NCBI GenBank assembly: GCA_964360965.1
Contig: CAYHYM010000004.1
Location: 32,796 to 64,795 of the forward strand
From: an uncultured Gammaproteobacteria bacterium
GTDB lineage: Bacteria > Patescibacteriota > Microgenomatia > Daviesbacterales > UBA10151
Length of the DNA stretch: 32,000 bases
Reading direction: 5' to 3'
The stretch's first letter is position 1. Each line of letters starts with the position of its first letter. Below the pieces are notes generated by a model that was not told the origin of the DNA, searched no databases, and saw only the letters and a list, made by a program, of their open reading frames with translations. A program made the translations under genes and the position numbers. Of this stretch, positions 1,227-30,595 are shown one piece after another.

Positions 1227-2102
1227 GTGATTACTAAATCAAAACAGGAATATATTAAAAATGCTATTTATCTTTCCTATACTTCTTTAAATGATTTTTT
1301 GAAGTGTCCCGGGAGCTATTATTTAAAAAACATCTACAGAGATCCCAAAACCGGCTTTAGGATGCAGATTGCCTCACCTTATCTTTCTTTAGGTTCAACA
1401 GTCCATGATGCTATAAAGTGGCATATAGAAATGGCAGGCCCGCTTCGACTCGCGTCGAGCGAGGCGAGACAGGTAACATATGAACAATTGGAGGGAAAAT
1501 TTAGAAATCTATGGCTAAAATATACCGGTAAAAGAGGGGGTTTCTCCACCAAAGAAGATGAAGCAAGTTTTGGTAAGCGCGGCCTGTTAATGTTGGAGAA
1601 TTTTTTTAGAAATGCCAAAAACTTGGAAGATAAACATCACAGTATAGAATTTCCTAAATACCCATTATTGGATAATGTAATTTTAATGGGGAATTTTGAC
1701 TTTATTGGGGAAAAAGAGGATCAGACCTTACATGTTGTGGATTTTAAAACCGGAGCAAATGATGAAAAAGATCCAATTCAGCTTTATATTTATGCCATTT
1801 TGGCAGAGGCTAATTTGGAAAAATCAGTTTCTTCAGCTTCATTTTGGTATTTGGACAGGGAAGATAAACCGCGTGATATAGTTTTAGATCCGCTGGAACC
1901 AAAACTGGAATGGTTAAAAGAAAAAGCCACAGAGTTAAAAAAGGCAATTGGGGAGGGAATGTGGGTTTGTCCTTCGACTCGCTCCGCTCGCTCAGGATTA
2001 TGTAGAGATTGTAGAGACTATCATGCCATTTTGGATGGAAAAGGTGAATTTCAATTTACTGATTATAGATACAAGAAAGATGTTTATTACCTTCCCAAAT
2101 AG
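1227..2102 (+). CDS. PD-(D/E)XK Cas4/RecB-family nuclease with Fe-S-type cysteines
   Basis: 291 aa with a GTG start. VVDFKTG (D-x-K) and QLYIYA (QxxxY) match PD-(D/E)XK/Cas4-RecB motifs. Cys27 plus a C-terminal C-x10-C-x2-C resemble Cas4/AddB 4Fe-4S ligands. Confidence 0.7.
   Translation: MITKSKQEYIKNAIYLSYTSLNDFLKCPGSYYLKNIYRDPKTGFRMQIASPYLSLGSTVHDAIKWHIEMAGPLRLASSEARQVTYEQLEGKFRNLWLKYTGKRGGFSTKEDEASFGKRGLLMLENFFRNAKNLEDKHHSIEFPKYPLLDNVILMGNFDFIGEKEDQTLHVVDFKTGANDEKDPIQLYIYAILAEANLEKSVSSASFWYLDREDKPRDIVLDPLEPKLEWLKEKATELKKAIGEGMWVCPSTRSARSGLCRDCRDYHAILDGKGEFQFTDYRYKKDVYYLPK
1433..1473 (+). repeat. GC-rich TTCGAC-type mini-element copy inside the nuclease ORF (encodes GPLRLASSEARQ)
   Basis: ggcaggcccgcTTCGACtcgcGTCGAGcgaggcgagacagg is a sharp GC island in an AT-rich gene. 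It contains the hairpin TTCGAC/GTCGAG at 1444-1459. Confidence 0.5.
1971..1996 (+). repeat. GC-rich CCTTCGAC...GCTCAGG mini-element copy inside the nuclease ORF (encodes PSTRSARSG)
   Basis: CCTTCGACtcgctccgctcGCTCAGG shares both ends with the copy at 18491-18518. It lies between the first and second C-terminal cysteines. Confidence 0.55.
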
Positions 2103-4512: not shown

Positions 4513-6050
4513 TAAATAGGCTCGAGGTCTTTTTCTACAACTTTTTCTATTAAAGTTTGTCCAGGGAAGATATAAATAAGTCTGATTTTGCCTGAACCGA
4601 CCTTGTTCAGTTCGTCAATAATAGTTGTAACTTTACTTGACTTAATATCAGTAAAAGGTTTGGCGACGGAATGGTATCTGCTGATAAAACCTTCTAGTTC
4701 GGAAGCTGCCAGAATCACCACTACATTTTTATCCAGAAGTGTGGTCATTTCGCCTTTAAGCTTACCTTGTTCTCGTAATAGGTTTTCAATTACTTGATAA
4801 AATTGGTTAAAATCTTGGGTGTTTGATTTACAGTTAATAATAAACTGTTGGACCTTTTCTTGTGTCTCAGAATTTACTGCGATAGACCCCTCTAGGATGT
4901 GACCTTCAAAGGCTGAAGTACTACTGTTGTAGACAGAAGGTAACCCAAGGAGAATAGTATGTGCTACCTCAATTTGGTGTTCCGCAAGCTCTGCTAACAC
5001 GCTTCTTACTGCTTGTTTTGGGTCAATATAGTCAATTCCAGGTTCTTGTTCTAGTAATTTGCCAACGCCTCCGTGCATAGCGGTGGAGCTAAAAGTGATT
5101 ATTGGGGGTATTCTTCTCTCCCTAGGTAGTGCTTTCGCGCGAGCCATTAATTCAGGCATATGAGCTTTTAAACTTTGGCCATATAAATTAGTGTCAATTG
5201 AGCCTGATAGTTTTGGATCAGAGATCGGATAAATCTCAGGAAACGAGCGATCGCCAAAATAGTTCTTCCCCAAGGCTGTAATTAGAGAGTTCATCAGGGC
5301 TTCGGTGAAATGGGCAGTATCACGACCGCTATCTCCACCAACAACAATAATTGGTCTTCTAGCAATCACTCTTGTTTCTTCTGGTTTACTAATATCCGGA
5401 GTAATGGTTTGTATTGGTAGTCTTTGAATACCCTTCAGGTAGCGTCTAATATCAAATCCAACGTAAAATCTAGGGTCTCCTGAAGAAGAAAATACTGTAT
5501 CCTCATAAGGATAATCTGCTCCAGTAATTAGGTCACGATCAAAAAAATGCCTTATGGGAATATCAGTTTGGGTAAATGGGTTAACGGTGCCATACTCAAG
5601 ACCTAGCTTGGTCACATCAGCACGCTTTAGATCAGACTCACTAACATCTAAGTGCTGGGCCAATTTGGTAAAGTCTAGCTCTCGATCAGCTCTGGTATGA
5701 GTTATAACTAGGGGATAACCAGGAGCTGTTAGGGCATTAGATCTCATAATTCGCCATAGTTCTACTCCTTGCTCTCCCTCGAAAATCGCAGCCGCAGCAT
5801 TTTCTCTTACAGATCTGGGACGGCCTTGATTTTTACCAAAAAAATAATGAACTCCGTATTCAAAACGCAAAAGTGGCGGGACTGGAGTTTCTGTATATAT
5901 CTCATCTCTAATCTCTGCCGGGACATCAAAAATGGTCAGGCAAAGTGAATCAAAATGGCTGGCGATTTGAGCCAGTCTTTCCACCACAGGATCGCTTTCT
6001 TCAAGGCCAAGTTGCTTTGGGTTAAATCCAACCTGTAATAATTGTTCCAT
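4509..6050 (-). CDS. two-domain protein: YbaK/ProX-like deacylase domain fused to an Asp/Glu-racemase-like domain lacking the catalytic cysteines
   Basis: 513 aa. The N-terminal half has a YbaK-like pattern (LVITHTRADRELDFTKLAQHL...GLEYGTVNPF...). The C-terminal half has a racemase-like IIVVGGDSGRDTAHF, then FSSTAMH (versus CNTAH) and ILAASELEG (versus GCTEL). All assignments are by eye. Confidence 0.45.
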   Translation of the reverse strand: MEQLLQVGFNPKQLGLEESDPVVERLAQIASHFDSLCLTIFDVPAEIRDEIYTETPVPPLLRFEYGVHYFFGKNQGRPRSVRENAAAAIFEGEQGVELWRIMRSNALTAPGYPLVITHTRADRELDFTKLAQHLDVSESDLKRADVTKLGLEYGTVNPFTQTDIPIRHFFDRDLITGADYPYEDTVFSSSGDPRFYVGFDIRRYLKGIQRLPIQTITPDISKPEETRVIARRPIIVVGGDSGRDTAHFTEALMNSLITALGKNYFGDRSFPEIYPISDPKLSGSIDTNLYGQSLKAHMPELMARAKALPRERRIPPIITFSSTAMHGGVGKLLEQEPGIDYIDPKQAVRSVLAELAEHQIEVAHTILLGLPSVYNSSTSAFEGHILEGSIAVNSETQEKVQQFIINCKSNTQDFNQFYQVIENLLREQGKLKGEMTTLLDKNVVVILAASELEGFISRYHSVAKPFTDIKSSKVTTIIDELNKVGSGKIRLIYIFPGQTLIEKVVEKDLEPIY

Positions 6051-6148
6051 ATATCTATTATCTATGTGATAGAGCAGGTATTATACACTATAAGGCTTAT
6101 TATGTCAAAATGATTAAACTAAGGATTTTTGTGTTTTTAAAACACTTG

Positions 6149-6179
6149 TTGACATATTGTCATACAGATGTGTTATACT
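6149..6179 (+). promoter_or_regulatory. promoter (TTGACA, 19-nt spacer, TGtTATACT extended -10) with embedded palindrome TGACAtatTGTCA
   Basis: TTGACA 6149-6154, TG 6171-6172, TATACT 6174-6179. ATG 6186 lies only 6 nt after the -10 and there is no SD. The inverted repeat at 6150-6162 overlaps the -35. Confidence 0.5.
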
Positions 6180-6185
6180 TAAGTT

Positions 6186-7916
6186 ATGGCATTAAAAAGA
6201 ACTACCCTAAGGATAGATGAAGACTTAAAAAAAGATACTCAACAGCGAGCCTTAGAGGAGAATACCACTCAACAAGAAATTCTCAATAGAGCTTTAAAGA
6301 AATATTTAAGAACTGAGGTTCAGAAAGAGCTTGCTAGGGAAACAGTGGCCGAGCCACAGGAAGTAACTACAAAAAAGGCTAGTTCGAGTAAACCAGCAGA
6401 TGTAATTGATTTGATATTTAGCTCACTGGATATCGAAGCCAGGGGTTTTATTAAAAAGGGAGATTTGATAGATGCCCTTAATTTTAGAGGAATTCTAGAG
6501 GATGACATTAGGATTAAAAATGTCATGGAGGCTTTGAGTAAAACTAATAAAGACGATGATATCCCCCCCCAAACCTTCCGCAGGATTGTTGGGCCGTACA
6601 TTACATTAATTGAAAAAGCCCTGACTGGTAGTCTGGTTATCCCCGATTTTAAGAATTTCTGTAGTTTTATTACTAATCTTTATAATCGCACAATTCAAAA
6701 CAAAGATGGCGAGGTTTCAGATTACATACCTGAGCTAAAAGGAGTTGACCCAAATAACTATGCTATTTCCATTTGTACTATAGACGGACAGAGATTTAAT
6801 TTGGGAGATTACAATACTCCCTATCTAGCCCAATCTACTGCCAAACCCATAAATTATTGTCTGGCCTTAGAAGAGCACGGCGAAGAAGTAGTTCATAAAA
6901 AGATTGGCAGAGAACCTTTAGGCAAAGGTTTAAATCAGTTGACTCTAAACAGTCAAGGATTGCCGCATAATCCTTTAAATGGTACAGGAGCAATTATGTC
7001 GGCCTCCTTGATTGGCCAAGAACTTTCCCTGGAAGACCGTTTTGAACAGGCTTTAAAGAAATGGAAGTCGCTTTCCGGAGGAATTAATCCTGGATTTTCA
7101 AAATCAGCTTACGATTCAGCTAAACATGTTGCGGATAAAGATCTGGCGCTAGCTTATTTTATGAGATTGAATCAGTTGTTTTCCAAAGGATCAAATTTAG
7201 AAGAATATTTGGACTTTCTGTTTAAATGCTTATCTATTGAAACTACCACTGAAGCTCAAGCAATTATTGCTGCCACTTTGGCAAACGCCGGAGTTTGTCC
7301 GACCAATGGGGAAGCCGTGTTAAAAATGGAGACTACAAAGAATTGTTTATCTTTGATGTATTCCTGCGGTATGGAAGATTACTCGTCTGAGTTTGCTTTT
7401 GCAATAGGACTTCCTGCTAAAAGCGGTATTTCAGGATCGATTATGATAGTTGTGCCTAATGTGATGGGAATTGCGATTTATTCTCCTAGGGTTGATAGTA
7501 ATGGCAATAGTGTTAAAGGATTAGATTTATGTAATAAATTAATCCAGAGATTTAATTTTCATAATTACGATAGCTTAACTAAAAAACTGGATAAAATTGA
7601 TCCCAGGCTTTTGAAAAATGAAAATAAAATGAGGGGCGTGATGGCTGTTTGTACTGCTGCTTCTCAGGGAGATCTATATGAGATCCAAAGGTTAGAGGCC
7701 TCGGGGGTTGCTTTGGATGAAGGTGATTATGATGCCAGAACCGGCATACATCTGGCAGCCTCGGAAGGTCACGAAGAGGTAGTTCGCTATTTTATTGAAA
7801 GAAGAGTGGATATTAACCCTAAAGACCGTTGGGGTGGGACACCTTTAGCTGATGCCATGAGAGGTAACCACACTGCGGTAATTGAACTGTTGGAGAAAAA
7901 TGGAGCCAGGCTATGA
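6186..7916 (+). CDS. glsA: kidney-type (GLS-like) glutaminase with N-terminal RHH domain, EF-hand-like region and C-terminal ankyrin repeats
   Basis: 576 aa. The RHH is TLRIDEDLKKDTQQRALEENTTQQEILNRALKKYL. Glutaminase core motifs: YIPELK, CTIDGQR, QSTAKP (Ser-x-x-Lys), GLPAKSGISG, VVPNVMG, GNSVKG, NFHNYD. Three ANK repeats follow (DYDARTGIHLAASEGHEEVV..KDRWGGTPLADA). Confidence 0.85.
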   Translation: MALKRTTLRIDEDLKKDTQQRALEENTTQQEILNRALKKYLRTEVQKELARETVAEPQEVTTKKASSSKPADVIDLIFSSLDIEARGFIKKGDLIDALNFRGILEDDIRIKNVMEALSKTNKDDDIPPQTFRRIVGPYITLIEKALTGSLVIPDFKNFCSFITNLYNRTIQNKDGEVSDYIPELKGVDPNNYAISICTIDGQRFNLGDYNTPYLAQSTAKPINYCLALEEHGEEVVHKKIGREPLGKGLNQLTLNSQGLPHNPLNGTGAIMSASLIGQELSLEDRFEQALKKWKSLSGGINPGFSKSAYDSAKHVADKDLALAYFMRLNQLFSKGSNLEEYLDFLFKCLSIETTTEAQAIIAATLANAGVCPTNGEAVLKMETTKNCLSLMYSCGMEDYSSEFAFAIGLPAKSGISGSIMIVVPNVMGIAIYSPRVDSNGNSVKGLDLCNKLIQRFNFHNYDSLTKKLDKIDPRLLKNENKMRGVMAVCTAASQGDLYEIQRLEASGVALDEGDYDARTGIHLAASEGHEEVVRYFIERRVDINPKDRWGGTPLADAMRGNHTAVIELLEKNGARL

Positions 7917-8218
7917 AAAGTGATATTAAGACAACCGGAGTAATGGCGCTTGACTGGGCAGCGGCTCAGGGAGATTTGCACGAGATTCAAAGGTTAGTCG
8001 CATCCGGCGCAGATTTGAACGAAGGTGATTATGATGGGAGAACCGCAATACATCTGGCAGCCTCGGAAGGACAGGAAGAAATTGTCAGGTATTTAATTGC
8101 GAAAGGTGTAAATATTAATCCTAGGGATCGTTGGGGTGGGACACCTTTAGCTGATGCCATGAGAGGTAACCACACCAAAGTTATAGAGCTTTTGAAAAAA
8201 CATAATGCACAGAAATAA
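7913..8218 (+). CDS. stand-alone ankyrin-repeat protein, tandem duplicate of the glutaminase C-terminus
   Basis: 101 aa, collinear with residues ~480-576 of the preceding gene. Nt 8129-8175 are identical to 7827-7873. ATGA start/stop overlap at 7913-7916. Confidence 0.75.
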   Translation: MKSDIKTTGVMALDWAAAQGDLHEIQRLVASGADLNEGDYDGRTAIHLAASEGQEEIVRYLIAKGVNINPRDRWGGTPLADAMRGNHTKVIELLKKHNAQK

Positions 8219-8229
8219 TCTAATTTCCT

Positions 8230-9330
8230 ATGAATGATAAACAAATTTCTCCTCCCAATAAAATAAAAGTTTATGTATTAAACACAGGTGGAACTCTGGG
8301 AATGGTGGGTAAACCGCTTCGTCCCGCTAAATCAGCTGCAGAGCTTTTAGAGGGAATTAATACTCCGCCTGAAGTGGAACTTATCATAGATGATTTTAAG
8401 TTTAGGCAGGATTCTACTAATATTTTGCATGCTGAAAGGCTAATGATGGCTAGGCAAATAGCCGAAAATTATAAAACCCATGATGCTTTTGTCATTATGC
8501 ACGGGACTGATTCTATGGCAGAAACAGCTGCAGCTTTTTGTATGTTCTTTAAATTATCTTTACAAAAGCCTTTAATTTTAGTTGGTGCTCAGATGTCTAA
8601 AGATGAGCCTGGTTCAGATGTACAACTGCAGTTATCAAATACTTTTAGAGTTGCCAGCGCCTTTCATAGATATAATATTGTGGGTGTTTATAATGTTTGT
8701 ATCGGTGATATTTGGGATGGGTCAAGGCTTAGGAAAAGAGCAGAGTCAAATTTCATGGCTTTTTACACTCCAGGTCGTCATCCGGTGGCCAGAATTTGGC
8801 CTCATATTCACTTTGATGAAGGGTTAAGATATAAAGATCCTGTTTTGGCAGTTCAGGATTTAAAGATTGATGGTGTGCTAGAGCGTAAAGTAGCTACTTT
8901 TAAAGTATCAGCAGATACACCTCCATGGGTAGTAATGGATCAAGTTTTAAAAAATCGCCTCAAAGGGGTCATTTTAGAGTGTAAAGGTGCAGGAAATATT
9001 CCAAATCGTGAATGGGAAGATTATGAAAACGGGACAACTTATTCATGGATTGATGTAATTGCGGCAGCAACTAAAGCTGGAATCCATGTGGGGATTATTT
9101 CACCTTTTGAAGATGGCAGAGTTATCCTAGGTCGTTATGAGCTGGGAGCAGAAGCACTTGAGGCAGGGGCAATTAGCTTAGAAAGTCTGACTCCAGATAT
9201 GGCAGATATTAAGTTTAGACAGGCTATTGCTATGTTTCCTACAGATAGAGAAAAAATTCAAGAATTTATTTCAACTAATATTATTGGAGAATTACTTACC
9301 GGAGCAGAAGATTCTGAGGAATTCATTTAG
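8230..9330 (+). CDS. ansA: L-asparaginase, type I family
   Basis: 366 aa. Contains the VLNTGGTLGM (TGGT) and HGTDSMAETAAA (HGTDTM) asparaginase motifs. Confidence 0.75.
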   Translation: MNDKQISPPNKIKVYVLNTGGTLGMVGKPLRPAKSAAELLEGINTPPEVELIIDDFKFRQDSTNILHAERLMMARQIAENYKTHDAFVIMHGTDSMAETAAAFCMFFKLSLQKPLILVGAQMSKDEPGSDVQLQLSNTFRVASAFHRYNIVGVYNVCIGDIWDGSRLRKRAESNFMAFYTPGRHPVARIWPHIHFDEGLRYKDPVLAVQDLKIDGVLERKVATFKVSADTPPWVVMDQVLKNRLKGVILECKGAGNIPNREWEDYENGTTYSWIDVIAAATKAGIHVGIISPFEDGRVILGRYELGAEALEAGAISLESLTPDMADIKFRQAIAMFPTDREKIQEFISTNIIGELLTGAEDSEEFI

Positions 9331-9340
9331 AGTAAGTTTT

Positions 9341-9385
9341 TTACCCAAGTTTAACTTCAGCCAGAATGTTATGTTTATGGAAGCC
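9341..9385 (-). pseudogene. displaced thpR/ligT 3'-end remnant (copy C, 15 codons)
   Basis: The minus strand reads GGCTTCCATAAACATAACATTCTGGCTGAAGTTAAACTTGGGTAA = GFHKHNILAEVKLG*. It lies 13 nt downstream of the degenerate hicA stop. Confidence 0.8.
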
Positions 9386-9398
9386 ATTTTTGTAGAAA

Positions 9399-9518
9399 TC
9401 AAAGTAATTCTTTAAGTTCATCTATGGAAATTTCCACTGACTTTAAAATACTCATTAGAGTTTTTCTTTTGAGAGCTTTAATGACCTCCTTTGGCTTAAC
9501 AACTGGAATTTTGGGCAT
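9399..9518 (-). pseudogene. hicA: hicA toxin gene with 105-nt in-frame internal deletion (39 codons left)
   Basis: Translates MPKIPVVKPKEVIKALKRKTLMSILKSVEISIDELKELL*. The intact paralogue at 31043-31267 has MPKIPIVKPKEVIKALQRK[35 aa including GSH]...KRKTLMSILKSAEISIDELKKLL. Too short to appear in the ORF track. Confidence 0.85.
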
Positions 9519-9782
9519 TTAAGAAAGAGTTTGCTGGATGGGTATATCAATTGTTGTCATAAAGCTGGGACCTTTTTCTTCAGGAACTATTTCATTATGT
9601 TTTTTTAAACTGGCAATATATACGCTGATAGCATCTTTAACCATCTCCACAGCTTCTTCCAAACTGTTACCTTCTGTGACACATCCTGGCAGAGCAGGTA
9701 CAATCACCACATACCCACCTTCTTCAGCTGGTTCAAAAATAGCAGTATATTTTAAGATTTTTTGAGAGATTTTCTTAGCCAT
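9519..9782 (-). CDS. hicB: HicB-family antitoxin (copy 1)
   Basis: 87 aa. YTAIFEPAEEGGYVVIVPALPGCVTEGNSLEEAVEMVKDAI is the HicB/UPF0150 fold signature. TAA-ATG junction with hicA. Confidence 0.8.
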   Translation of the reverse strand: MAKKISQKILKYTAIFEPAEEGGYVVIVPALPGCVTEGNSLEEAVEMVKDAISVYIASLKKHNEIVPEEKGPSFMTTIDIPIQQTLS

Positions 9783-9800
9783 GGAGTTATTATAGCATTT

Positions 9801-10367
9801 TCAAACTAACTTTACTTCAGCTAAAGTATTATGTTTGTGGAAACCTTCTTGGGGAACTGATTCAAACAGTTTAATGGAGGAAATTTTAATGGGATTAAAA
9901 GGCATGGCCATAAGTTTTTCCATTTCCACTTCTAATTTTTGATCTACTTTTAAATGGTTGTTGAGCTTGGCAATGGTGATATGAGGAATGAAACGACGTT
10001 CATCTGCTGTGAGCCTTAAAGTGGCCAAGCTATCTTTGATGCGCTCACGAATAAGTAAAATTTTATCTATATCCCCTTTGACTCCAATCCAAAGAACTTG
10101 AGGATGGTGGAGGTTTGGAAATCCATCAATATAGGCAGGGGTAACTTCAAATGCAGGAATATTCGCTACAGCATTTCTGATAATTTCAACTAATTTATCC
10201 TTTAATCCATCCGGTTGTTCTCCTAAAAAAGCTAAAGTCAGGTGAATTTTGTCTAAATCAGTAATTCTTACTTGAGTAATTAATGTATGCAATTTAGCTT
10301 GTATAGCTTGAAACTGCAATCTATTCTCTTTCGGAATTTCAAGTGCTATGAAAAACCTTATACCCAT
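9801..10367 (-). CDS. thpR: RNA 2',3'-cyclic phosphodiesterase / 2'-5' RNA ligase (2H phosphoesterase)
   Basis: 188 aa with two H-x-T-x motifs (HLTLAFLG and HITIAKL) at the expected spacing. Confidence 0.8.
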   Translation of the reverse strand: MGIRFFIALEIPKENRLQFQAIQAKLHTLITQVRITDLDKIHLTLAFLGEQPDGLKDKLVEIIRNAVANIPAFEVTPAYIDGFPNLHHPQVLWIGVKGDIDKILLIRERIKDSLATLRLTADERRFIPHITIAKLNNHLKVDQKLEVEMEKLMAMPFNPIKISSIKLFESVPQEGFHKHNTLAEVKLV

Positions 10368-10419
10368 AAATCATACTATATTTGACAACGCTTTTAAAAA
10401 GTGCCTACACTTAAATAGT

Positions 10420-10734
10420 ATGGCAATGGCGGTTGAAGCTCCCCCTCAGCCAAGAGCAAAAGCTGAAATAAGAGTTATTAAATCTGATCCTGAAGTTTTG
10501 GATGAGCAAGTACTCTATCAACAAGGAGCTTATAAAAGAGTCAGGCAATATCTACGAGGCTGGTATCCTAAATTGGGAGTTTTACATATGGGCTGGCAAG
10601 GTCAAGAAACCATTGTAGAAAGAGATGTTATTACAGCCAGTGTAAGATTTAGAGTAAGCCAGGGTATTGATAGGTATACCTTCACTGACTTGACAAATAG
10701 ACCGGGATTTCTTATTGTTAAAGCAACAACTTAA
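10420..10734 (+). CDS. hypothetical protein (tracked ORF 10348-10734; ATG 10420 preferred)
   Basis: The 10348 start would overlap the thpR start. TTGACA 10382-10387, an 18-nt spacer and TACACT 10406-10411 precede ATG 10420. No motif recognised. Confidence 0.4.
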   Translation: MAMAVEAPPQPRAKAEIRVIKSDPEVLDEQVLYQQGAYKRVRQYLRGWYPKLGVLHMGWQGQETIVERDVITASVRFRVSQGIDRYTFTDLTNRPGFLIVKATT

Positions 10735-10736
10735 TA

Positions 10737-10926
10737 TTTAATCAAGAGTGATGGGGAGGGAATTGGCCCGTTGATCCATCCAGCAACTGATTCGAGTTTT
10801 CGAGAATCCTTAAGCGACTAGCGAAGGACCTCTAGAAACCGACCGCGGTGCTACACCCAAGCCCGCAAGGGAGGATTAGGTCTTTTAAAGGCAAAAATTG
10901 AACCTCTCTTGATGAGAGGTTTTTTA
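10737..10926 (+). promoter_or_regulatory. SAM-I (S-box) riboswitch with terminator expression platform
   Basis: UUAAUC-AAGAG-UGAUGGGGAGGGAAUUGGCCCGUUGAUCCAUCCAGCAAC...GGUGCUACACCC-AAGCCCGCAAGGGAGG-GAUUAGG matches the S-box core (AUCAAGAG, GAGGGA, GGCCC, UGA..CC, CAGCAAC, GGUGCUA). P1 pairs 10737-10743 with 10874-10880. P4 has a GCAA tetraloop. A terminator follows. Confidence 0.8.
10901..10926 (+). terminator. intrinsic terminator of the riboswitch expression platform
   Basis: AACCTCTC-ttgat-GAGAGGTT followed by a T run. The 5' arm plus loop (CTCTTGAT, 10907-10914) is complementary to ATCAAGAG (10741-10748), allowing an alternative pairing. Confidence 0.7.
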
Positions 10927-10944
10927 ATGAGAAGGAGGTGAAAT

Positions 10945-11304
10945 ATGGAAAGAAAAGAATTAATGCAGCAGTTAGTAGCTGAAGGAAGAACAAAACCTAG
11001 GGGTTTACTGACTATTATATTTGACGAAGAGAGTGAGTATGTCAGATTTGTGCGTGAGGCATATAATAGGTTTGGTGGTGAAGGATTAGAATTTACTAAC
11101 GTTCCGATTATCCTTAGTGCCCGTGTTAGACCCGGCCTATTGGAGCAAACCTGGGAAGAATTTAACTATAGACCAGTTACTAAAGAGGATTTAGATAAAG
11201 TTAGGGAGGAATTAAAAAAATGGAAGCCATGGGATCCGGCAATACTAAAAGATGGACATGTTCCAGGTTTTGCAGAACCAAAGGAAATATATATTGATTG
11301 GTAA
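10945..11304 (+). CDS. hypothetical 119-aa protein controlled by the SAM-I riboswitch
   Basis: Strong SD (GAAGGAGGTG) 5 nt upstream of the ATG. No recognisable domain. Confidence 0.6.
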   Translation: MERKELMQQLVAEGRTKPRGLLTIIFDEESEYVRFVREAYNRFGGEGLEFTNVPIILSARVRPGLLEQTWEEFNYRPVTKEDLDKVREELKKWKPWDPAILKDGHVPGFAEPKEIYIDW

Positions 11305-11465
11305 ATGCTTTTTAAGTTCCTTCATGCCAAGCAAGACTGAAAAGCCAATATAGGCTGCCTTAAGACGCATTTTTGGCATATCTTATAGTATACCAGGTAG
11401 CTGTTTATAAATCAAATAATGTTTATTTAACAGAAGTTTTTGTGATACTATTATTTTAAGCATTT

Positions 11466-12625: not shown

Positions 12626-14323
12626 TTACTGTGTTCCCACCAGATACACAGCTTGCCAGGGTTTGTAGTTAGATTTCCAGGTTTCTTTGATCATCACCTC
12701 CCCTCCTTTGGTGACAGTTCTGGTAAATGACACATCAGCCCCCCAGGCTGCAAAATCTATCTGTTTGACCTCACCTTTGGGCAGCTCGGGGTCATCCTGT
12801 CGCAACTCCGGTGGAGGCGGAGTCTGGTTGGTAATAATTGGTTTTGTTAAAGTGGCCACCCTGTTATCAGAGGTGCCATATAAATCAACATATAAACTGT
12901 TACCCACTGTATATGCTTGGATTAAAATATGGGATGGGGTGTCATTTTTAAACTTAAAATCAACAGAGGGAGAAAAAACTGTGGCATCCAGTCCGGCAGG
13001 GAAACCCTGCTCATAATAACCCACTCTGTAGGCATGAGCTACTCTTTGGACCACTGGTAGTCCCGCATTTAAGACTGCTCTAAATAAAGTAGTTGAATCC
13101 TGACAAACTCCTCCTCCATCATCTAAAACAGTCCTGCCGGATTTAATCACATAGGCCTGTTTATAACCTGACTGCGCCGAAATATCCCCAACTTTGTCGT
13201 TAAAAGAGAATGTTTCTCCTGGGGGGACTAAAATACCGTTGATGCGTGAGGCAGCCAGTCCAATATTATAGATTCTGTTGGGGATTGAACCTGTAAAATG
13301 AGAAATACCGCGACCAATTAGCTCTTTGATCCCCAAATCATTGACCTGTTGGGTTTGGATTTTAGGCTGGGTAATGGTAACTGGCAAGGTGATGGTTTTT
13401 GGTCTTTGGTTGTCCAAAGCCAGTATGATAAGTTGAGTTGTTTTTTCCATATCAACTCTTTTACCTGCCTGGGCAGGTTTGAAAGCTGTTACCCGTGCTA
13501 TTAATGGATCAAAATTAAACAGCGCCTCAATCACCGGTTGGTCAATTTTGGAAGCTACTGCAGTTGTTAAATATTTGGATAGCTTATTTTTATCTATTAA
13601 CTGATTATTTTGTGTAAAATTCAAAAGAGGGATTAAAATTTTAGCATCAATCAACCAGCTATTGCCATCAAAGGTAAGTTTGATTGGTTCTTTGATAGCA
13701 TCCTCCAGATATTTTTTGGCCAGTTCTGCCTCTTTATTGGTAATGTCTGGTTCAATTTGCCTGGTGGGAAGTGTGGCAGGCGAGTTCCCAAATAAAAGGT
13801 AATCCTCAAGGTAAATTAACAGTTGGTCTTTATCCAAAGCAAGACCTGTTCTGCCTGCTGTTATTTTAATTAGGGCAGATGGGGTTGACTGCTCTATTGT
13901 AAGAGTGGCATCTTGGGGAGGTTGATATATGGTTTGAGCTAAGGCGTTAACTTGTTCGTTAAGATCAATATCAATTTTGGGTTTAATGGTTCTTGGGGAA
14001 ACTGTCAGTTTTATTTGATCGAATATTTTTTCTGCCCAGGTACCTGTATGGCCGATTAAAAAAGCCTCGTCTATGGCCTGAGAACTATTAATTTTGGCAG
14101 AGGCGGTTGACAGGTCAATGGTAAGGATCCTTTGCCGCAGTCTTTGGTGGAATTTTGCCTCAATCAGTCTTTGAGATTGAGTTTTGGTCAGGAAAAAAAG
14201 ATGACTATCCCCGACAAAAATTCCGGGAAAAAATTTATCGTAAAAAATAAACTGACAGCTGGTGAGAATAAGTATGATCAGGATAAAAAATAACACCAGC
14301 GGTCTTTTTGCCATTGAGCGCAT
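12626..14323 (-). CDS. VanW-family protein with C-terminal G5-like domain
   Basis: 565 aa with an N-terminal TM helix. The VanW core is GGGVCQDSTTLFRAVLNAGLPVVQRVAHAYRVGYYE. A G5-like segment (PELPKGEVKQIDFAAWGADVSFTRTV) follows. Confidence 0.75.
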   Translation of the reverse strand: MRSMAKRPLVLFFILIILILTSCQFIFYDKFFPGIFVGDSHLFFLTKTQSQRLIEAKFHQRLRQRILTIDLSTASAKINSSQAIDEAFLIGHTGTWAEKIFDQIKLTVSPRTIKPKIDIDLNEQVNALAQTIYQPPQDATLTIEQSTPSALIKITAGRTGLALDKDQLLIYLEDYLLFGNSPATLPTRQIEPDITNKEAELAKKYLEDAIKEPIKLTFDGNSWLIDAKILIPLLNFTQNNQLIDKNKLSKYLTTAVASKIDQPVIEALFNFDPLIARVTAFKPAQAGKRVDMEKTTQLIILALDNQRPKTITLPVTITQPKIQTQQVNDLGIKELIGRGISHFTGSIPNRIYNIGLAASRINGILVPPGETFSFNDKVGDISAQSGYKQAYVIKSGRTVLDDGGGVCQDSTTLFRAVLNAGLPVVQRVAHAYRVGYYEQGFPAGLDATVFSPSVDFKFKNDTPSHILIQAYTVGNSLYVDLYGTSDNRVATLTKPIITNQTPPPPELRQDDPELPKGEVKQIDFAAWGADVSFTRTVTKGGEVMIKETWKSNYKPWQAVYLVGTQ

Positions 14324-14379
14324 TTTACGTTAGTTCCAAGCTTTGGGCAAGTTATGAGATATAATTGAAAGGTAGACCT

Positions 14380-14479
14380 GTGAAGAGCCCTTCGACAAGG
14401 CTTCGACGGTGAGTCTTTCGACCCTGAGCTCAAGACCGAAGGGCTCAGCCGAACCGCTCAGGGTAAACTCTGTCGAACC
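14380..14479 (+). repeat. largest copy of the GC-rich TTCGAC/GCTCAGGG element; likely 5' leader of the solute-binding gene
   Basis: About 60% GC in an AT-rich intergenic region. Interleaved inverted repeats: GAGCCCTTCG 14385-14394 / CGAAGGGCTC 14437-14446, and ACCCTGAGC 14421-14429 / GCTCAGGGT 14456-14464. It ends at the base before ATG 14480. A TATAAT at 14360-14365 lies upstream. Confidence 0.65.
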
Positions 14480-15778
14480 ATGAAAAAAATTATTATTTTG
14501 GTTTTAGTTTTGGCCATTATTTTGGGAGTTTTAATATGGCGTTTTGGGCTGAGTAACAATTTAAAAAAAGTAGAGCCTGTTAATTTGACTTATTGGGGAC
14601 TGTGGGAAGAAGAAAATTTGTTAAAACCTTTGATTTTAGAGTATCAAAAACAAAATCCCAATGTGACAATAAGTTATGTTCGGCAATCATCAATCAATTA
14701 TAGAACCAGGGTTCAGGCTCAAATCAAAGAGGGGGTGGGGCCTGATATTTTTAGAATTCACAACTCCTGGCTGGGCATGTTTTTAAAAGAGGACAGTTTG
14801 GCTCCTGCTTCTGATGTGTTTACTCTAGCTGATTATAAAAATACCTTTTATCCTGTGGCAGCTGATTCTTTTATAACAGCTGATGCCATTTATGCAGCGC
14901 CCATGGAAGTTGATGGACTGGCCCTATTTTATAATGAAGACATGTTAAACGGGATCAACGGAAAACCACCTGAGAATTGGCAAGAATTTATAGAGATAGC
15001 CTTCAAAATGACTGTCCGGGATGCATCAGGAATAAAGACAGCAGGCGCCAGTTTAGGAACAGCCTCAAATGTTGATCACTTCTCGGATATAATAGGGTTG
15101 CTACTTTTACAACAACCTGGTGTGGATTTAACAAATGTGGCAACCCTTCAAGTTGCGGAGGTTTTAAGATTTTATACAGGCTTTGTGACAGATCCAGGGA
15201 AAAAAACTTGGGATGTCAATTTGCCTTCCTCAACTCAGATGTTTATAGAAGGACGCTTAGGTTTTTATTTTGCACCTTCTTGGAGAGCACATGAGATAAG
15301 AGTGGCCAACCCCAATTTGAAATTTAAGGTGGCACCAGTTCCACAGCTGGCAGGCAGGACAGTTGCTTGGGCTTCTCTTTGGGGTGAGGCTGTATCCAAA
15401 ACCAGTAAGAATAGGGAGGAAGCCTGGAAATTTGTCAAATATTTAACATCTGCTGAAGCTCAAAAACTTTTCTATACCGAGGTCTCAAAAGTAAGGTTTT
15501 TTGGGGAGCCTTATTCAAGGGTGGATTTGGCAGGGGAGATCTCGGAGGATCCTGTTGCAGGGGCTTTTGTGTCCCAGGGCCCGTATTATAAATTCTGGTA
15601 TTTATCATCCAACACCTATGACAACGGAATAAATGATGAGATGATTAAATACTGGGAGGATGGCATAAATGCCACCCTGGCTGGAACAGATCCACAGGTG
15701 GCCTTACAAACTGTGGAGAAAGGTGTAAAACAGGTGCTGGATAAATATACCAAAGCTGCTACTCCAAACACAAAATAA
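14480..15778 (+). CDS. ABC transporter extracellular solute-binding protein (family 1, sugar-type)
   Basis: 432 aa. N-terminal membrane anchor, then LTYWGLWEEENLLKPLILEYQKQNPNVTISY and PDIFRIHNSW, typical of SBP_bac_1 proteins. Confidence 0.7.
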   Translation: MKKIIILVLVLAIILGVLIWRFGLSNNLKKVEPVNLTYWGLWEEENLLKPLILEYQKQNPNVTISYVRQSSINYRTRVQAQIKEGVGPDIFRIHNSWLGMFLKEDSLAPASDVFTLADYKNTFYPVAADSFITADAIYAAPMEVDGLALFYNEDMLNGINGKPPENWQEFIEIAFKMTVRDASGIKTAGASLGTASNVDHFSDIIGLLLLQQPGVDLTNVATLQVAEVLRFYTGFVTDPGKKTWDVNLPSSTQMFIEGRLGFYFAPSWRAHEIRVANPNLKFKVAPVPQLAGRTVAWASLWGEAVSKTSKNREEAWKFVKYLTSAEAQKLFYTEVSKVRFFGEPYSRVDLAGEISEDPVAGAFVSQGPYYKFWYLSSNTYDNGINDEMIKYWEDGINATLAGTDPQVALQTVEKGVKQVLDKYTKAATPNTK

Positions 15779-15802: not shown

Positions 15803-16111
15803 ATGCAAAAGAAGATTTTAAATTATAAGCAAAGCTTGAAATTCTCGCAGAGCTTAAATTATAGAATCATCATTGAACCGGAAAAAATGGGCAAAAAAAT
15901 TGTCTATAATGCAGCTTGTCCTACACTGGGGGTATATGATTATGGTAACTCCATTGATGAGGTTTTAGAAAGCATTAAAGATGGTATTGAACTGGCAATT
16001 GAAGTGTTAAGAGATGAGGGTCAAGAGGTACCAGTTGATGATACAGAAAAGGGTGTAGTGGTGGCTACTCAAGTAGAGGCTCCTGATAATGCTAAGATAA
16101 TGACTGCATGA
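15803..16111 (+). CDS. hicB: HicB-family antitoxin (copy 3, divergent)
   Basis: YRIIIEPEKMGKKIVYNAACPTLGVYDYGNSIDEVLESIKDGIELAIE is a HicB/UPF0150 pattern. ATGA overlap with the following hicA. Confidence 0.7.
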   Translation: MQKKILNYKQSLKFSQSLNYRIIIEPEKMGKKIVYNAACPTLGVYDYGNSIDEVLESIKDGIELAIEVLRDEGQEVPVDDTEKGVVVATQVEAPDNAKIMTA

Positions 16112-16332
16112 GCAAATTACCTCGCAATGTTAAACCACAGATATTAATTAAATTTCTAGTTAAGCTTGATTTCAAAGAAGGTAAGGGTAGGGGTAGTCAT
16201 ATCAGATTGACTCACCCCGATGATAGGTGGACTCAAGTGGCAGTGCATCCAGGTCCAGTACCACCGGGAACTTTAAGAAAAATAATCAAACAAGCAGAAA
16301 TTACAGAGGATCAATTGAAAGATTTAAAATGA
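16108..16332 (+). CDS. hicA: HicA-family mRNA interferase toxin (copy 3)
   Basis: 74 aa. [28 protein letters not shown] (GSH motif) is YcfA/HicA-like. Confidence 0.75.
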
Positions 16333-17824: not shown

Positions 17825-18388
17825 ATGTCTGAAAGGCCAGAGGTAGTTTTATCAACAAAAATTGAAGGTTTAAAATTTGCCTGCTGGAGGCAGTTACCGC
17901 TTGATGCTCAGACCAGATTTTATCCTGGGATCAAACTTTTTCCCAATCCCTCGGATGCTTTATATAAAGTAGCCGGCGCTTTTGCAATTTTAAAAACACT
18001 TACTCCACCCCTGAGCGGAACAGTTGTGGCGCATGTTGGGTTTGATATTACAGAGGAATCATTTGTTATTACCAATTCTCCCCAGGGATGCTCAAGAAAT
18101 TATTTAGAAGGTTATCCTGATGATTTAAAAACAGCAGTTTTAACAGAGTTAAGAAATGGTTTTAGAGAGGAATTGTTGGGAGCTGTTTTAAAAATAGCCT
18201 CTGTTTTTAAAAATACGGGTATCAGACAAGTTAAGGGTATATCTGCTCACAATGATGAAAGAGTTGATATAAATGGCGGAGTAATGCCTTATCATCAAGC
18301 CCTCAGGTCAATGGATGAGCTTTATCGAAAGTGTGGATTTGATCAAGATATTTATGGTGATTTTGTCTTGTCCTTAATCAGTCCTTGA
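17825..18388 (+). CDS. hypothetical protein
   Basis: 187-aa ORF. TATAAT 17811-17816 lies 8 nt upstream of the ATG. No motif recognised. Confidence 0.45.
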   Translation: MSERPEVVLSTKIEGLKFACWRQLPLDAQTRFYPGIKLFPNPSDALYKVAGAFAILKTLTPPLSGTVVAHVGFDITEESFVITNSPQGCSRNYLEGYPDDLKTAVLTELRNGFREELLGAVLKIASVFKNTGIRQVKGISAHNDERVDINGGVMPYHQALRSMDELYRKCGFDQDIYGDFVLSLISP

Positions 18389-18414
18389 CAAGTAGTGCTA
18401 GTTTCTGGTATATA
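18385..18414 (+). promoter_or_regulatory. groES operon promoter (TTGACA, 18-nt spacer, TATATA)
   Basis: TTGACA 18385-18390 overlaps the stop of the upstream gene; TATATA is at 18409-18414. No CIRCE palindrome was found. Confidence 0.5.
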
Positions 18415-18446
18415 TATGAACCAGTTTCCTGCCTTCTTGATTGCAT

Positions 18447-18791
18447 ATGCCAAAAGTAAAAAAAGCAAAAACTGCAAAATTAAAAATTAACCCTTCGACT
18501 TCGCTCAGGGTGAAGCCCTTAATGGGTTATGTGTTAGTGCAACCTGGTGAGGCTGAAACTACTACTTCCTCAGGTATTATCCTTCCAGAATCAGCTCAAG
18601 AAAAACCGGCTCAAGGAATGGTTGTAGCTTGTGGTGAGGATATGGTTTTGGAGGGTGGCAAAGTTATAAAGTGTCCGGTAAAAGTAGGAGATAAAGTAGT
18701 TTATAAAAAATGGGGCGGGGATGAGATAAAAATAGATGGGGTAGAATATAAATTAGTCAAATTCGATGATCTAATGGCAATATTGGAGTAA
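18447..18791 (+). CDS. groES: co-chaperonin GroES (start ambiguous: ATG 18447 with Lys-rich extension, or GTG 18510)
   Basis: VKPLMGYVLVQP...SGIILPESAQEKPAQGMVVACG...VGDKVVYKKWGG.EIKIDGVEYKLVKFDDLMAILE is canonical GroES. GTG 18510 would give the canonical MKPL.. N-terminus. Confidence 0.85.
   Translation: MPKVKKAKTAKLKINPSTSLRVKPLMGYVLVQPGEAETTTSSGIILPESAQEKPAQGMVVACGEDMVLEGGKVIKCPVKVGDKVVYKKWGGDEIKIDGVEYKLVKFDDLMAILE
18491..18518 (+). repeat. GC-rich CCTTCGAC...GCTCAGGG mini-element at the groES 5' end
   Basis: CCCTTCGACTTCGCTCAGGGTGAAGCCC encodes PSTSLRVKP if translated from ATG 18447. Confidence 0.6.
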
Positions 18792-18795
18792 AAAT

Positions 18796-19170
18796 ATGAG
18801 GGAAAAACTGATAGGAGATATAAATAGATTAGCTAATTTGGGATCAGTTATAACCAGAGGCTTAGATAGAGGAGTTAGTAGGCTCATAAAAGGTCTACCA
18901 ATCAAGAGAGAAAATTCGACTGTAGAATCATTTGATAGTATTAGTGATTATAGTTTGAGTTTTTTAAGATGGGGAGGGCAAATGGCAAGAGATGACGTTT
19001 TCCTAAGAGCATTGGGTGGTGTTACGCTAATTGGAATTGGTATGGTAACTGATAGGATGATTACAGGCGTTGGAATTTACATAACATTAAAAAATGCTAA
19101 AGCATTTCACGATTTAAGTAGAGACATAAAAAGAATAGGAAATGCAGAATCAGCAAGAGGAATCGTCTAA
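18796..19170 (+). CDS. hypothetical 124-aa protein inserted between groES and groEL (one or two predicted TM helices)
   Basis: GGAG lies 8 nt upstream of the ATG. The hydrophobic stretch LGGVTLIGIGMVTDRMITGVGIYITL is present. No homology recognised. Confidence 0.5.
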   Translation: MREKLIGDINRLANLGSVITRGLDRGVSRLIKGLPIKRENSTVESFDSISDYSLSFLRWGGQMARDDVFLRALGGVTLIGIGMVTDRMITGVGIYITLKNAKAFHDLSRDIKRIGNAESARGIV

Positions 19171-19183
19171 AAGGAATTAATAT

Positions 19184-20827
19184 ATGGCAAAGATGTTGAA
19201 ATTTAACCAAGAAGCTCGTGAGAAATTATTAAAGGGTATTAATATCCTGACAGAGGCTGTGGCTACCACTTTGGGGCCTAAGGGCAGAAATGTGGCTTTG
19301 GATAAGAAGTGGGGAGCACCAGCTGTTGTTCATGATGGAGTAACTGTGGCCAAAGAGATAGATTTGGAAGACCCGTTTGAAAACATGGGGGCACAACTTA
19401 TTAAAGAAGCAGCCTCAAAGACCAATGATGTGGCAGGAGACGGAACAACAACAGCCACCATTTTGGCCCAAGCAATGGTTTCAGAGGGCTTAAAAAATAT
19501 TCAGGCCGGAGCCAATCCCATGATTTTAAAACATGGCATGGAAAAGGCTGTGACAGCTTTGGTTGAAGAGCTCAAAAAGATGAGCAAAAAAGTAACTACT
19601 CAGGAAGAAATTGCTCAAGTGGCCACCATTGCCGCGGCAGATGTACAGATTGGCAATCTAATTGCCGAAGCCTTGCAAAAAGTGGGAAAAGACGGGGTGG
19701 TTACAGTTGAGGAAGGTAAAACTATGGAGATGGCTGTTGATTATAAAAAAGGGATGGAGTTTGATAAAGGTTTTGTTTCACCTTATTTTATAACTGATAC
19801 GGATAAAATGGAGGCAAGTAATGATGGGGAACCATATATTCTAATTACTGATAAGAAAATTTCTTCTGCCGCTGATCTTGTTCCATTTTTAGAAAAATTC
19901 GTACAGTACTCTAAAGATTTAGTAATAATTGCAGACGAAGTTGAAGGAGAAGCGCTGGCTTTATTAGTAGTAAATAAACTTCGCGGTACCTTCAATATTT
20001 TTGCAGTTAAGGCTCCAGGCTTTGGTGATCGCAGGAAAGAGATGTTGGAAGATATAGCAATTTTGACAGGTGGTACTGTTATTTCTGAAGACACAGGGAA
20101 AAAATTTGAATCAGTTGAAAAAGAGGATTTAGGAAGAGCTGGAAGGGTAACATCAGATAAAGACAACACTTTAATTGTTGATGGTAAGGGCGTCAAAGCC
20201 AGGATTGAAGGAAGAATTGCTCAAATAAGAAGGGAGCTGGAAACTTCAGATTCAGAATTTGACAAGGAAAAGCTACAAGAAAGATTGGCCAAATTAACAG
20301 GTGGAGTGGCTGTAGTTAATGTTGGAGCTGCCACAGAAATAGAACTGAAAGAGAAAAAAGAAAGGGTAATTGATGCAGTGGCAGCCACCAAAGCAGCAAT
20401 TGAGGAAGGAATTGTTCCTGGTGGAGAGGTAGCTTTAATTAGAGCAGCTAAAGTTTTGGACAGTGTGATTGCTGATGGGGACTCTTCGACAGGTTCAGGG
20501 CAAGAGGAAAAAGTTGGTGTAGAGATTGTCAAAAAAGCCCTGGAACAACCATTTAGGCAGTTGGTTAAAAATGCGGGAATGGATGAGGGTGTTGCCTTAG
20601 CAAAAGTTTTGGATTCGCAAGGCAATATGGGTATTGATGCTTTAGATGGTAACCTGAAAGATTTAGTTAAGGCAGGAATTATTGACCCGGTCAAAGTGAC
20701 CAGATCAGCTCTTCAGAATGCAGTATCCGTAGCTATTATGGTAATGACGACCCACGTTCTAATTTCTGACAAGCCTGAACCCCCAGCACCTCCCCCAATG
20801 CCCCCGGGCGGAAGGCCTGAGTACTAA
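19184..20827 (+). CDS. groEL: chaperonin GroEL
   Basis: 547 aa. Contains [46 protein letters not shown] and [11 protein letters not shown]. The C-terminal tail is Pro-rich ([17 protein letters not shown]) instead of the usual GGM repeats. Confidence 0.95.
20482..20504 (+). repeat. short TTCGAC...TCAGGG motif copy inside groEL (encodes DSSTGSGQ)
   Basis: CTCTTCGACaggTTCAGGGCAAG. Compare CCTTCGACttcgcTCAGGGTGAAG at 18492-18515. Local GC spike in a variable GroEL loop. Confidence 0.4.
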
Positions 20828-30576: not shown

Positions 30577-30595
30577 CTGCGAGCGAAGCAGGTCC
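30577..30595 (-). repeat. possible short reverse-orientation copy of the GC-rich motif
   Basis: The minus strand GGACCTGCTTCGCTCGCAG resembles the CTTCGCTCAGG core. It is intergenic between the membrane protein gene and metG. Confidence 0.3.

Follow-up and report, generated by a model that had tools for sequence, protein, structure and literature searches.

Several bacterial elements are built from, or inserted into, palindromic DNA. IS1397, IS110/IS621 and group IIC introns tend to insert at the apex of palindromic DNA. REPs and BIMEs are imperfect palindromes, short and dispersed in many copies, which form mosaics, lie sometimes within genes or at the 5′ ends of open reading frames (ORFs), and are thought to act as single-stranded hairpins; REPs comprise superfamilies tagged with GTAG or CGTC, and intragenic and ORF 5′-end REPs are documented (Di Nocera et al. 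2013, PMC3733652). Rickettsia palindromic elements (RPEs), reviewed in PMC10969869 and discussed in PMC3733652, are palindromes of about 100–150 bp, found in Rickettsia only, that lie in frame in essential protein genes and are tolerated as surface peptides. Small non-autonomous repeats of the MITE kind, such as Correia, ERIC and the pneumococcal BOX, RUP and SPRITE elements, cluster, nest, and can alter promoters and 5′ untranslated regions (UTRs) (PMC10969869). Here we describe a palindromic unit of about 20–25 nucleotides (nt; range 19–30), nested copies of which make up a GC-rich block directly upstream of a solute-binding protein gene in a 32,000-nt stretch of contig CAYHYM010000004.1 (positions 32,796 to 64,795; assembly GCA_964360965.1), hereafter the window.

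The units resemble REPs and BIMEs in the respects listed above, and within genes they resemble RPEs, lying in frame in GroEL, GroES and TatD. They differ from REPs in having no unpaired GTAG or CGTC terminal tag; their 5′ flank is (A/G)C(C/T)TGT, that is R-C-Y-T-G-T, with the conserved sequence inside the hairpin, which places them outside the tagged superfamilies. Three marks distinguish them: a constant core with a variable stem, the reverse of the arrangement in REPs; nesting in one another's apical loops; and an exact core common across phyla, where REPs are usually species-specific. They are set apart from RPEs by size and by host, being found in a free-living-type groundwater lineage of the Candidate Phyla Radiation (CPR) and in Acidobacteriota, and they are also common in promoters, in leaders and in the stems of RNAs. 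Neither terminal inverted repeats nor target-site duplications were observed for them, and they are several-fold smaller than described MITEs. We know of no parent insertion sequence (IS) for the units, and they differ from the hairpin-targeting ISs, which are kilobase autonomous elements, in that the insert is itself a hairpin of ~24 nt without coding capacity. The element behaves like REPs and BIMEs and, within genes, like RPEs; it belongs to neither the tagged REPs nor the MITEs. A literature search by sequence words and peptide translations found no description of it, within a limited library and not as proof of novelty.

The block as occupant of an insertion hot spot

The block (14375/14378–14479) is 105 nt long with 58% G+C, compared with 38% for the window overall, and ends exactly at the ATG (14480) of a rightwards-transcribed solute-binding protein gene (SBP_bac_1/SBP_bac_8; 14480–15778), an arrangement already described in an earlier note made from the sequence alone. 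A TATAAT −10 box (14360–14365, plus strand) is followed by a 9-nt spacer, GACCTGTGAAGAGCCCTTCGACAAGGCTTCGACGGTGAGTCTTTCGACCCTGAGCTCAAGACCGAAGGGCTCAGCCGAACCGCTCAGGGTAAACTCTGTCGAACC and the start codon; a consensus promoter scan missed this box because no −35 element is present. An exact look-up of the solute-binding protein sequence returned no record. The same note pointed out that the gene has no Shine-Dalgarno (SD) sequence, which is true but ordinary here: an SD-like motif is present at just 9 of the window's 35 ORFs, and in 20 of the 35 a TAnnnT hexamer lies 5–12 nt before the start, so that operon-first genes look leaderless and internal genes use an SD. We infer leaderless status from the spacing between the −10 box and the start.

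Orthologues of the solute-binding protein, 63–72% identical, are present in 23 Candidatus Daviesbacteria metagenome-assembled genomes (Microgenomates, CPR). Both the −10 box (consensus gGTATAATtga) and the divergent VanW-like gene are retained at all 23 loci. The basal state, seen in about eight species (L001, L002, L013, L014, L015, L017, L021 and others), has 6–11 nt from the −10 box to the start codon. At exactly this place the remaining loci carry GC-rich palindromes of differing kinds. A 25-nt unit, type A (GACCTGTGGTGAGCGAAGTCGAACC), abuts the ATG in L016, L018, L005 and L007, and a longer nested form of it is present in L010; with the composite insertion of the window (14375–14479, plus strand) this gives six type A loci. 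A CAGTCATCAGTC...GACTGATGACTG hairpin is found in L003, L004 and L012 (about 9930–10000), a GTCATCCTGAGG...GAAGGATC palindrome lies just upstream of the start in L006, L008 and L057, and L011 has a GGATTCCTGCTTTCGCAGGAATGAC palindrome (5660–5740). Tallied by type, apart from type A, the CAGTCATCAGTC hairpin accounts for three loci, a GTCATCCTGAG type for three to four and a GGATTCCTGC..GCAGGAATGAC type for one. Occupants of the gap between promoter and ATG also include GTCATCCCCGACCTGATCGGGGATCC; several of them begin with TTTGTCAT, and those of the CAGTCATCAGTC type are long hairpins. A neighbour-joining tree of the protein places the window beside L010 and L018, which are type A, and puts L016, another type A locus, closest to the empty L015 and L017; this indicates that filling or emptying of the site happened at least twice. 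The block is the occupant of an insertion hot spot and not a conserved leader.

Filled and empty states also occur at two further promoters. A MazE/AbrB-like gene has TATAAT, 6 nt and ATG in the window, L009, L018 and L057, and TATAAT-a-ATGGTGAGCGAAGTCGAACC-ATG in L004. The gene following the solute-binding gene has TAAACT-tgggact-ATG in L019, TAAACT-TGTGGTGAGCGAAGTCGAACC-ATG in L005, and a variant with a CC/GG stem at the same place in L014. In both genes the unit begins 1–3 nt after the −10 box and is therefore not fully transcribed, which counts against a purely RNA-level role. Taken together, these promoters offer a natural series, filled and empty, in which leaderless genes suddenly gain a structured leader with no SD.

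At least four copies of the short unit, nested in one another, make up the block itself. It starts with GACCTGTG and ends with GTCGAACC, which are the ends of the 25-nt type A unit, with some 80 extra nt inside. The 5′ half of this outermost unit is at 14375–14388 (GACCTGTGAAGAGC; compare GACCTGTGGTGAGC in L016) and its 3′ half, at 14472–14479 (plus strand), adjoins the ATG. Within it are the two halves of a reverse-oriented unit, type B, at 14388–14399 (CCCTTCGACAAG) and 14456–14468 (GCTCAGGGTAAAC), also given on the plus strand; the intact form, CCCTTCGACAAGCTCAGGG, is found in L012 and L029. The third layer is a type A unit with a nested hairpin (14408–14458, plus strand), and the innermost hairpin surrounds a GAGCTC palindrome (14409–14448, both strands; unit model 19.4 bits on the minus and 12.7 bits on the plus strand). 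A further palindrome is present at 14410–14447. The earlier note took the block for the master copy of a family, a view that its anatomy does not support: the block is derived, and the simple 25-nt form is the one in L016, L018, L005 and L007.

Two perfect interleaved inverted repeats, also noticed earlier, are indeed present, 14385–14394 pairing with 14437–14446 in 10 of 10 positions and 14421–14429 with 14456–14464 in 9 of 9. Their A-B-A′-B′ order had been read as pseudoknot-like. It arises because a forward CCC-TGAGC..CGAA-GGG unit is nested in a reverse CCC-TTCGA..GCTCA-GGG unit that has the same stem; the halves of opposite nested units are complementary, and the order is a by-product of this nesting and no evidence for an RNA pseudoknot, the helices being judged at this single locus. 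Folding lends modest support to the description of the block as structured, with RNA energies at z = −1.8 on the plus and −3.0 on the minus strand and DNA energies at about −1.6 on both; the sense-strand energy is unremarkable, and the minimum free energy (MFE) folds do not use both interleaved helices.

The same note suggested that the element had been co-opted as a regulatory leader, and several features could be taken for a cis-regulatory RNA (a riboswitch, thermometer or pseudoknot) controlling translation of the solute-binding gene: the block fills the whole presumed 5′ UTR and stops at the ATG, its interleaved inverted repeats are perfect, and the MFE fold pairs the bases that directly precede the AUG. 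We regard this as very unlikely. Orthologues are leaderless or hold unrelated insertions, SD-less starts are normal in this genome, the antisense strand folds better than the sense strand, nested units account for the interleaving, and at the two promoters above the unit could not be fully transcribed. In a search of the whole window Rfam returned no family at its gathering threshold, and on 14300–14560 it gave only noise at E values up to 10.

The block is GC-rich like coding DNA, and a GTG at 14380 opens a frame, which might suggest a decayed N-terminal extension or pseudogene, or else an assembly artefact. Both are effectively refuted: the frame ends after 10 codons, the orthologous intergenic regions contain 6–11 nt or unrelated insertions and no coding sequence, the nested insertion in tatD (below) is identical in two independent assemblies, and parts of the block match a repeat family of many genomes.

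A small hairpin unit and its copies

The unit has a variable stem of 3–6 bp around a constant T-GAGC-(3–5 nt)-(T)CGAA core. Sites were chosen by the loop motif alone, with the flanks unseen, and the motif has 36 matches in 446 kb of Daviesbacteria DNA, compared with 14 expected. Like REPs, the units are short imperfect palindromes that can fold into a hairpin. Their stems covary, and 22 of the 36 matches have at least three complementary flanking pairs, compared with 0.9 expected (maximum 4 in 20 shuffles). Loop motifs with paired flanks are 3 of 13 in other CPR loci and 1 of 15 in non-CPR loci. The three inner stem pairs had been selected for pairing and, across 51 aligned copies, use CG, GC, AU and UA; the fourth pair, which was not selected, is paired in 67% of the copies. 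Position 13 of the loop pairs with position 17, mostly as C-G, and as T-A in all three copies that have T13.

Y-GA-R is a favoured context for tandem sheared G·A pairs, and the core, with Y-GA-R on both strands, would be read as a T-A pair, tandem sheared G·A/A·G pairs (5′-TGAG-3′ against 5′-CGAA-3′), a G-C and a C-G pair and a GNA triloop. A core folded in this way gains no credit in standard energy models, and this may account for the low predicted stabilities.

A covariance model built from the 51-copy alignment, with matches counted at E values up to 1, found 32 copies in 414 kb of Daviesbacteria DNA, three in 462 kb of other CPR DNA and none in 430 kb of non-CPR DNA. The density in Daviesbacteria is about one copy per 13 kb. 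The idea of a dispersed family of miniature palindromic elements is borne out by this census and by the gain and loss of units between orthologous sites. REPs are mainly extragenic and lie downstream of genes; here the copies are dispersed, but many are intragenic, in RNA stems or just ahead of start codons, in a sample of loci that each cover part of a genome. Rfam gave no family for the units in 148 kb of other loci.

Within the window the model matches 18486–18515 (35 bits), 1965–2002 (E 0.002), 14409–14440 (E 0.004) and 27905–27936 (E 0.012). Seven sites in all had been proposed as relatives of the block. The longest, in tatD, had been put at about 77% identity by eye; 14408–14458 and 27896–27945 share 40 of 51 bases (78%), with a local alignment score of 27 against 12.8 ± 1.1 (none of 100 shuffles reached 27). 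Those at 1971–1996 and 18491–18518 are also units, and those at 20482–20504 and 10808–10832 are decayed ones. The remaining two, 1433–1473 and 30577–30595, gained no support from the covariance model or any other test.

In TatD the insertion is in frame and nested (27871–27948, minus strand), made up of a type A unit whose loop holds a 30-nt unit, with a GGAGAC-TTCG-GTCTCC hairpin alongside. It replaces 18 nt of the basal gene and adds 20 amino acids in two nested steps, both represented among orthologues: a basal form (..DRSK-DPNNSE-AWD..), a medium form with the type A unit and small hairpin, and a long form, found in the window and one other contig, with the 30-nt unit added in the first loop. 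The TatD of the window is identical in two independent assemblies from Hainich groundwater 0.1-µm fractions. The orthologues range from 259 to 336 amino acids owing to repeat-derived peptide insertions at several positions (among them HPFDSAQGK, SSPSAQNDR and a C-terminal LRLRSG), and TatD recurs as a host of repeat elements of this sort.

The N-terminus of GroES contains a 24-nt in-frame unit (18489–18512, plus strand) that encodes NPSTSLRV, adds eight amino acids, includes the exact 14-nt core and is missing in 20 orthologues. In GroEL a decayed type B unit of 21 nt (20480–20500, plus strand; DSSTGSG, seven amino acids) is matched elsewhere only in L029, which has a perfect unit at the same position; about 20 orthologues have no insertion in GroEL. 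A further unit, TCC-TTCGA..CTCA-GGA, lies inside a PD-(D/E)XK nuclease gene (1965–2002, minus strand; 20.8 bits, E 0.0017). The groES gene has a conserved TTGACA-17-TATAAT promoter and a leader of ~35 nt with no SD (18380–18450 in the window, and in orthologues).

A decayed unit is also found in a structured RNA. The window contains a full-length match to the SAM-I riboswitch aptamer (10736–10881, plus strand) that scores 40.3 bits (E = 4e-8), below the Rfam cut-off of 44.4 because the apical loop of P3 holds 48 nt (10793–10840, plus strand) and not 7; L005, L008 and L014 have clear units in this loop. Insertions of the units explain such sub-threshold RNA-family scores. The aptamer lies upstream of a 119-amino-acid gene (10945–11304) that has a strong SD. 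Elsewhere, a TCC-TGAG..CGAA-GGA unit sits between the SAM aptamer P1 strand and the intrinsic terminator (L005 4631–4660, L006 132–161, L012 1331–1360), with a compensatory C-G to T-A change across the three species, and may now be part of the riboswitch expression platform.

Units persist wherever an additional hairpin or a short hydrophilic peptide is tolerated. They explain GC-rich islands and odd peptide insertions (PSTSSG, NPSTSLR, GSTGTSAVSS) in CPR genomes, and probably generate many spurious 'hypothetical proteins'.

Nesting, distribution and spread

The 14-nt core with complementary flanks is also present in viral contigs of 31–73% G+C, in which 23 of 81 exact core matches have stems of at least 3 bp, compared with ~4 expected. 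The 21-mer TGTGGTGAGCGAAGTCGAACC occurs in at least 120 metagenome stretches, on contigs of 36–67% G+C among the matches listed. One of them, L300 (67% G+C), is assigned to the Acidobacteriota (Terriglobia) by its adenylosuccinate lyase, which is 77–79% identical to named proteins. A BLAST search of the PLSDB plasmids with a nested copy gave no match.

Of 82 copies of the 21-mer examined among the matches listed, 12 interrupt the apical GCGA^AG of a second TGAGC..CGAA unit, eight lie within the loop of GTCATCCCCGCG-A^A-GGCGGGGATC hairpins, and eight at the apex of other palindromes; one of the last is a GTAG-type REP (L238), and a genuine REP of this tag was seen only as a host of the unit. 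Outer stems of 6 bp or more enclose 15 copies, compared with 2.5 when the flanks are randomly re-paired. Besides entering coding and structured-RNA sequences, the family favours the apices of hairpins. As GCGAAG is part of the unit's own loop, self-targeting explains the nesting. In about 15 metagenome contigs (L231, L259, L266, L269, L277, L279, L283, L285 and others) the unit lies between tandem 8-mers, for example AAATCGCA or AAATCTCA; these repeats are a different family and seem to be another preferred landing site. L081, a viral-collection contig of 63% G+C, has eight copies in 13.5 kb (4824–11381); their flanks, GCCTGTCY..RGGSCC, are constant and the apical 4–5 nt vary, the opposite of the constant core and variable stems in Daviesbacteria.

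The identical 21-mer core in Patescibacteria and Acidobacteriota is one of several observations favouring a functional hairpin motif that is not mobile DNA, for example the binding site of a conserved nucleic-acid-binding protein or a stabiliser of mRNA 5′ ends. Such a motif would be recruited or regenerated again and again by gene conversion or template switching among copies, and kept by selection. The stems covary around the constant core, the unit between SAM aptamer and terminator is kept in three species with its compensatory change, and units recur in 5′ regions. We nevertheless hold this explanation to be improbable, as units lie, in either orientation, in protein loops of GroEL, GroES and TatD, places with no obvious use for a signal in RNA or DNA, copies decay (20482, 10808), orthologous sites are patchily occupied, and several unrelated repeat families occupy the same site.

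The block is probably a nested insertion of a selfish or neutral repeat, and not a dedicated regulatory leader. As a first step, the 25-nt type A unit GACCTGTGGTGAGCGAAGTCGAACC would have inserted just upstream of the ATG, and later units would have entered the apical loop of the resident one, which is the family's preferred target elsewhere. The mRNA leader would have become ~105 nt long and GC-rich, with no SD. Translation could still start, as the lineage appears to initiate routinely without an SD at A/U-rich starts. Alternatively, a TAAACT brought by the element (14464–14469, plus strand), 10 nt before the ATG, is a candidate secondary −10 box that might restore a near-leaderless transcript. 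Spread may depend on a trans-acting enzyme that recognises single-stranded hairpin DNA, the targets being hairpin loops or the open-complex bubble at about −11 to +3. Insertion into this bubble would explain why leaderless promoters are occupied right beside the ATG.

Several points weigh against this reading. A tblastn search with E. coli RayT of 2.56 Mb of fetched loci, about 20 kb per genome, gave no match below E = 1, the best match being a LigT-like protein. No long autonomous version was found: stem+TGAGC...CGAA+stem′ combinations 150–4000 nt apart number 15 pairs, about the number expected by chance. Comparing empty with filled sites at the solute-binding leader, in TatD and GroEL and at two further promoters reveals no consistent target-site duplication. 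Simple copy-and-paste from one master would not produce stems that vary among copies. The predicted folding energies of the block are unremarkable. The retention of an exact core across phyla is odd for neutral junk and hints at constraint of some sort. Statements on the transcription start site, on leaderlessness and on how expression is affected are deductions from sequence.

We raise more tentatively the prospect that the ~24-nt hairpin (A)CCTGTGG-TGAGCGAAGTCGAA-CC(A), with its stem variants, is the smallest mobile DNA described so far, inserted into single-stranded DNA by an enzyme, spread across phyla (Patescibacteria, Acidobacteriota and others) and tolerated in leaders, riboswitch stems and protein loops. 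Its targets may be promoters, in their melted −10/+1 region, and hairpin loops; the latter would include the GCGA^AG of the unit itself, so that nesting becomes self-similar. Hairpin-apex targeting and the cross-phylum core point to a mobilising or binding activity that is now searchable. Extremely streamlined CPR genomes still carry an active-looking repeat family, which can enter essential genes such as groEL and the tiny gaps between promoter and ATG of leaderless genes, and the significance lies in this family more than in the solute-binding leader itself.

Four further ideas were rejected. The unit does not always adjoin a start codon: viral and metagenome copies are followed by A, usually as AT or AAG, and ATG follows in 9 of 82 copies among the matches listed, not above expectation given AT. 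In Daviesbacteria this adjacency results from insertion into leaderless promoters. A mini-ORF starting at an upstream GTG or ATG (MVSEVEP*, with overlapping ATGA coupling) misfits in frame and in distance to the −10 box in L004, L005, L007 and the window, a TCAT/ATGA target tag with a 3-nt duplication is inconsistent between sites, and mimicry of a tRNA or T-loop does not fit the sequence of a T-arm.

Neighbouring genes in the window

The divergent gene next to the block (VanW/PG_binding_4; 12626–14314, leftwards transcribed) likely has its true start at ATG 14314 (MAKRP, as in orthologues) and not at 14323. A TAAAAT box precedes this ATG by 7 nt (14312–14327, minus strand), and the gene looks leaderless too. 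In relatives with the basal state the divergent intergenic region is only ~45 bp and contains two back-to-back leaderless promoters. Directly downstream of the solute-binding gene is a HicB-like/HicA toxin-antitoxin pair (15803–16332, plus strand), and a second such pair is present in L218/L219 (473–958); the two pairs lie within ~15 kb.

A CTGCC(C/T)C motif some 20 nt ahead of the ATG is conserved in the groES leader, and GroES has a lineage-specific N-terminal extension, MPKVKK.... An unannotated ORF of 124 amino acids (18796–19170, plus strand), with an SD-like GGAG and no Pfam match, splits the groES-groEL pair. The MazE/AbrB-like gene, of 78 amino acids, is on the minus strand and starts near 1159 (about 1142–1230). 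It is preceded by tandem TGTCAGTAC(A/C)TTGTCAGTACA repeats that are kept in five species; these are operator-like, and the PD-(D/E)XK nuclease gene has its promoter back to back with them.

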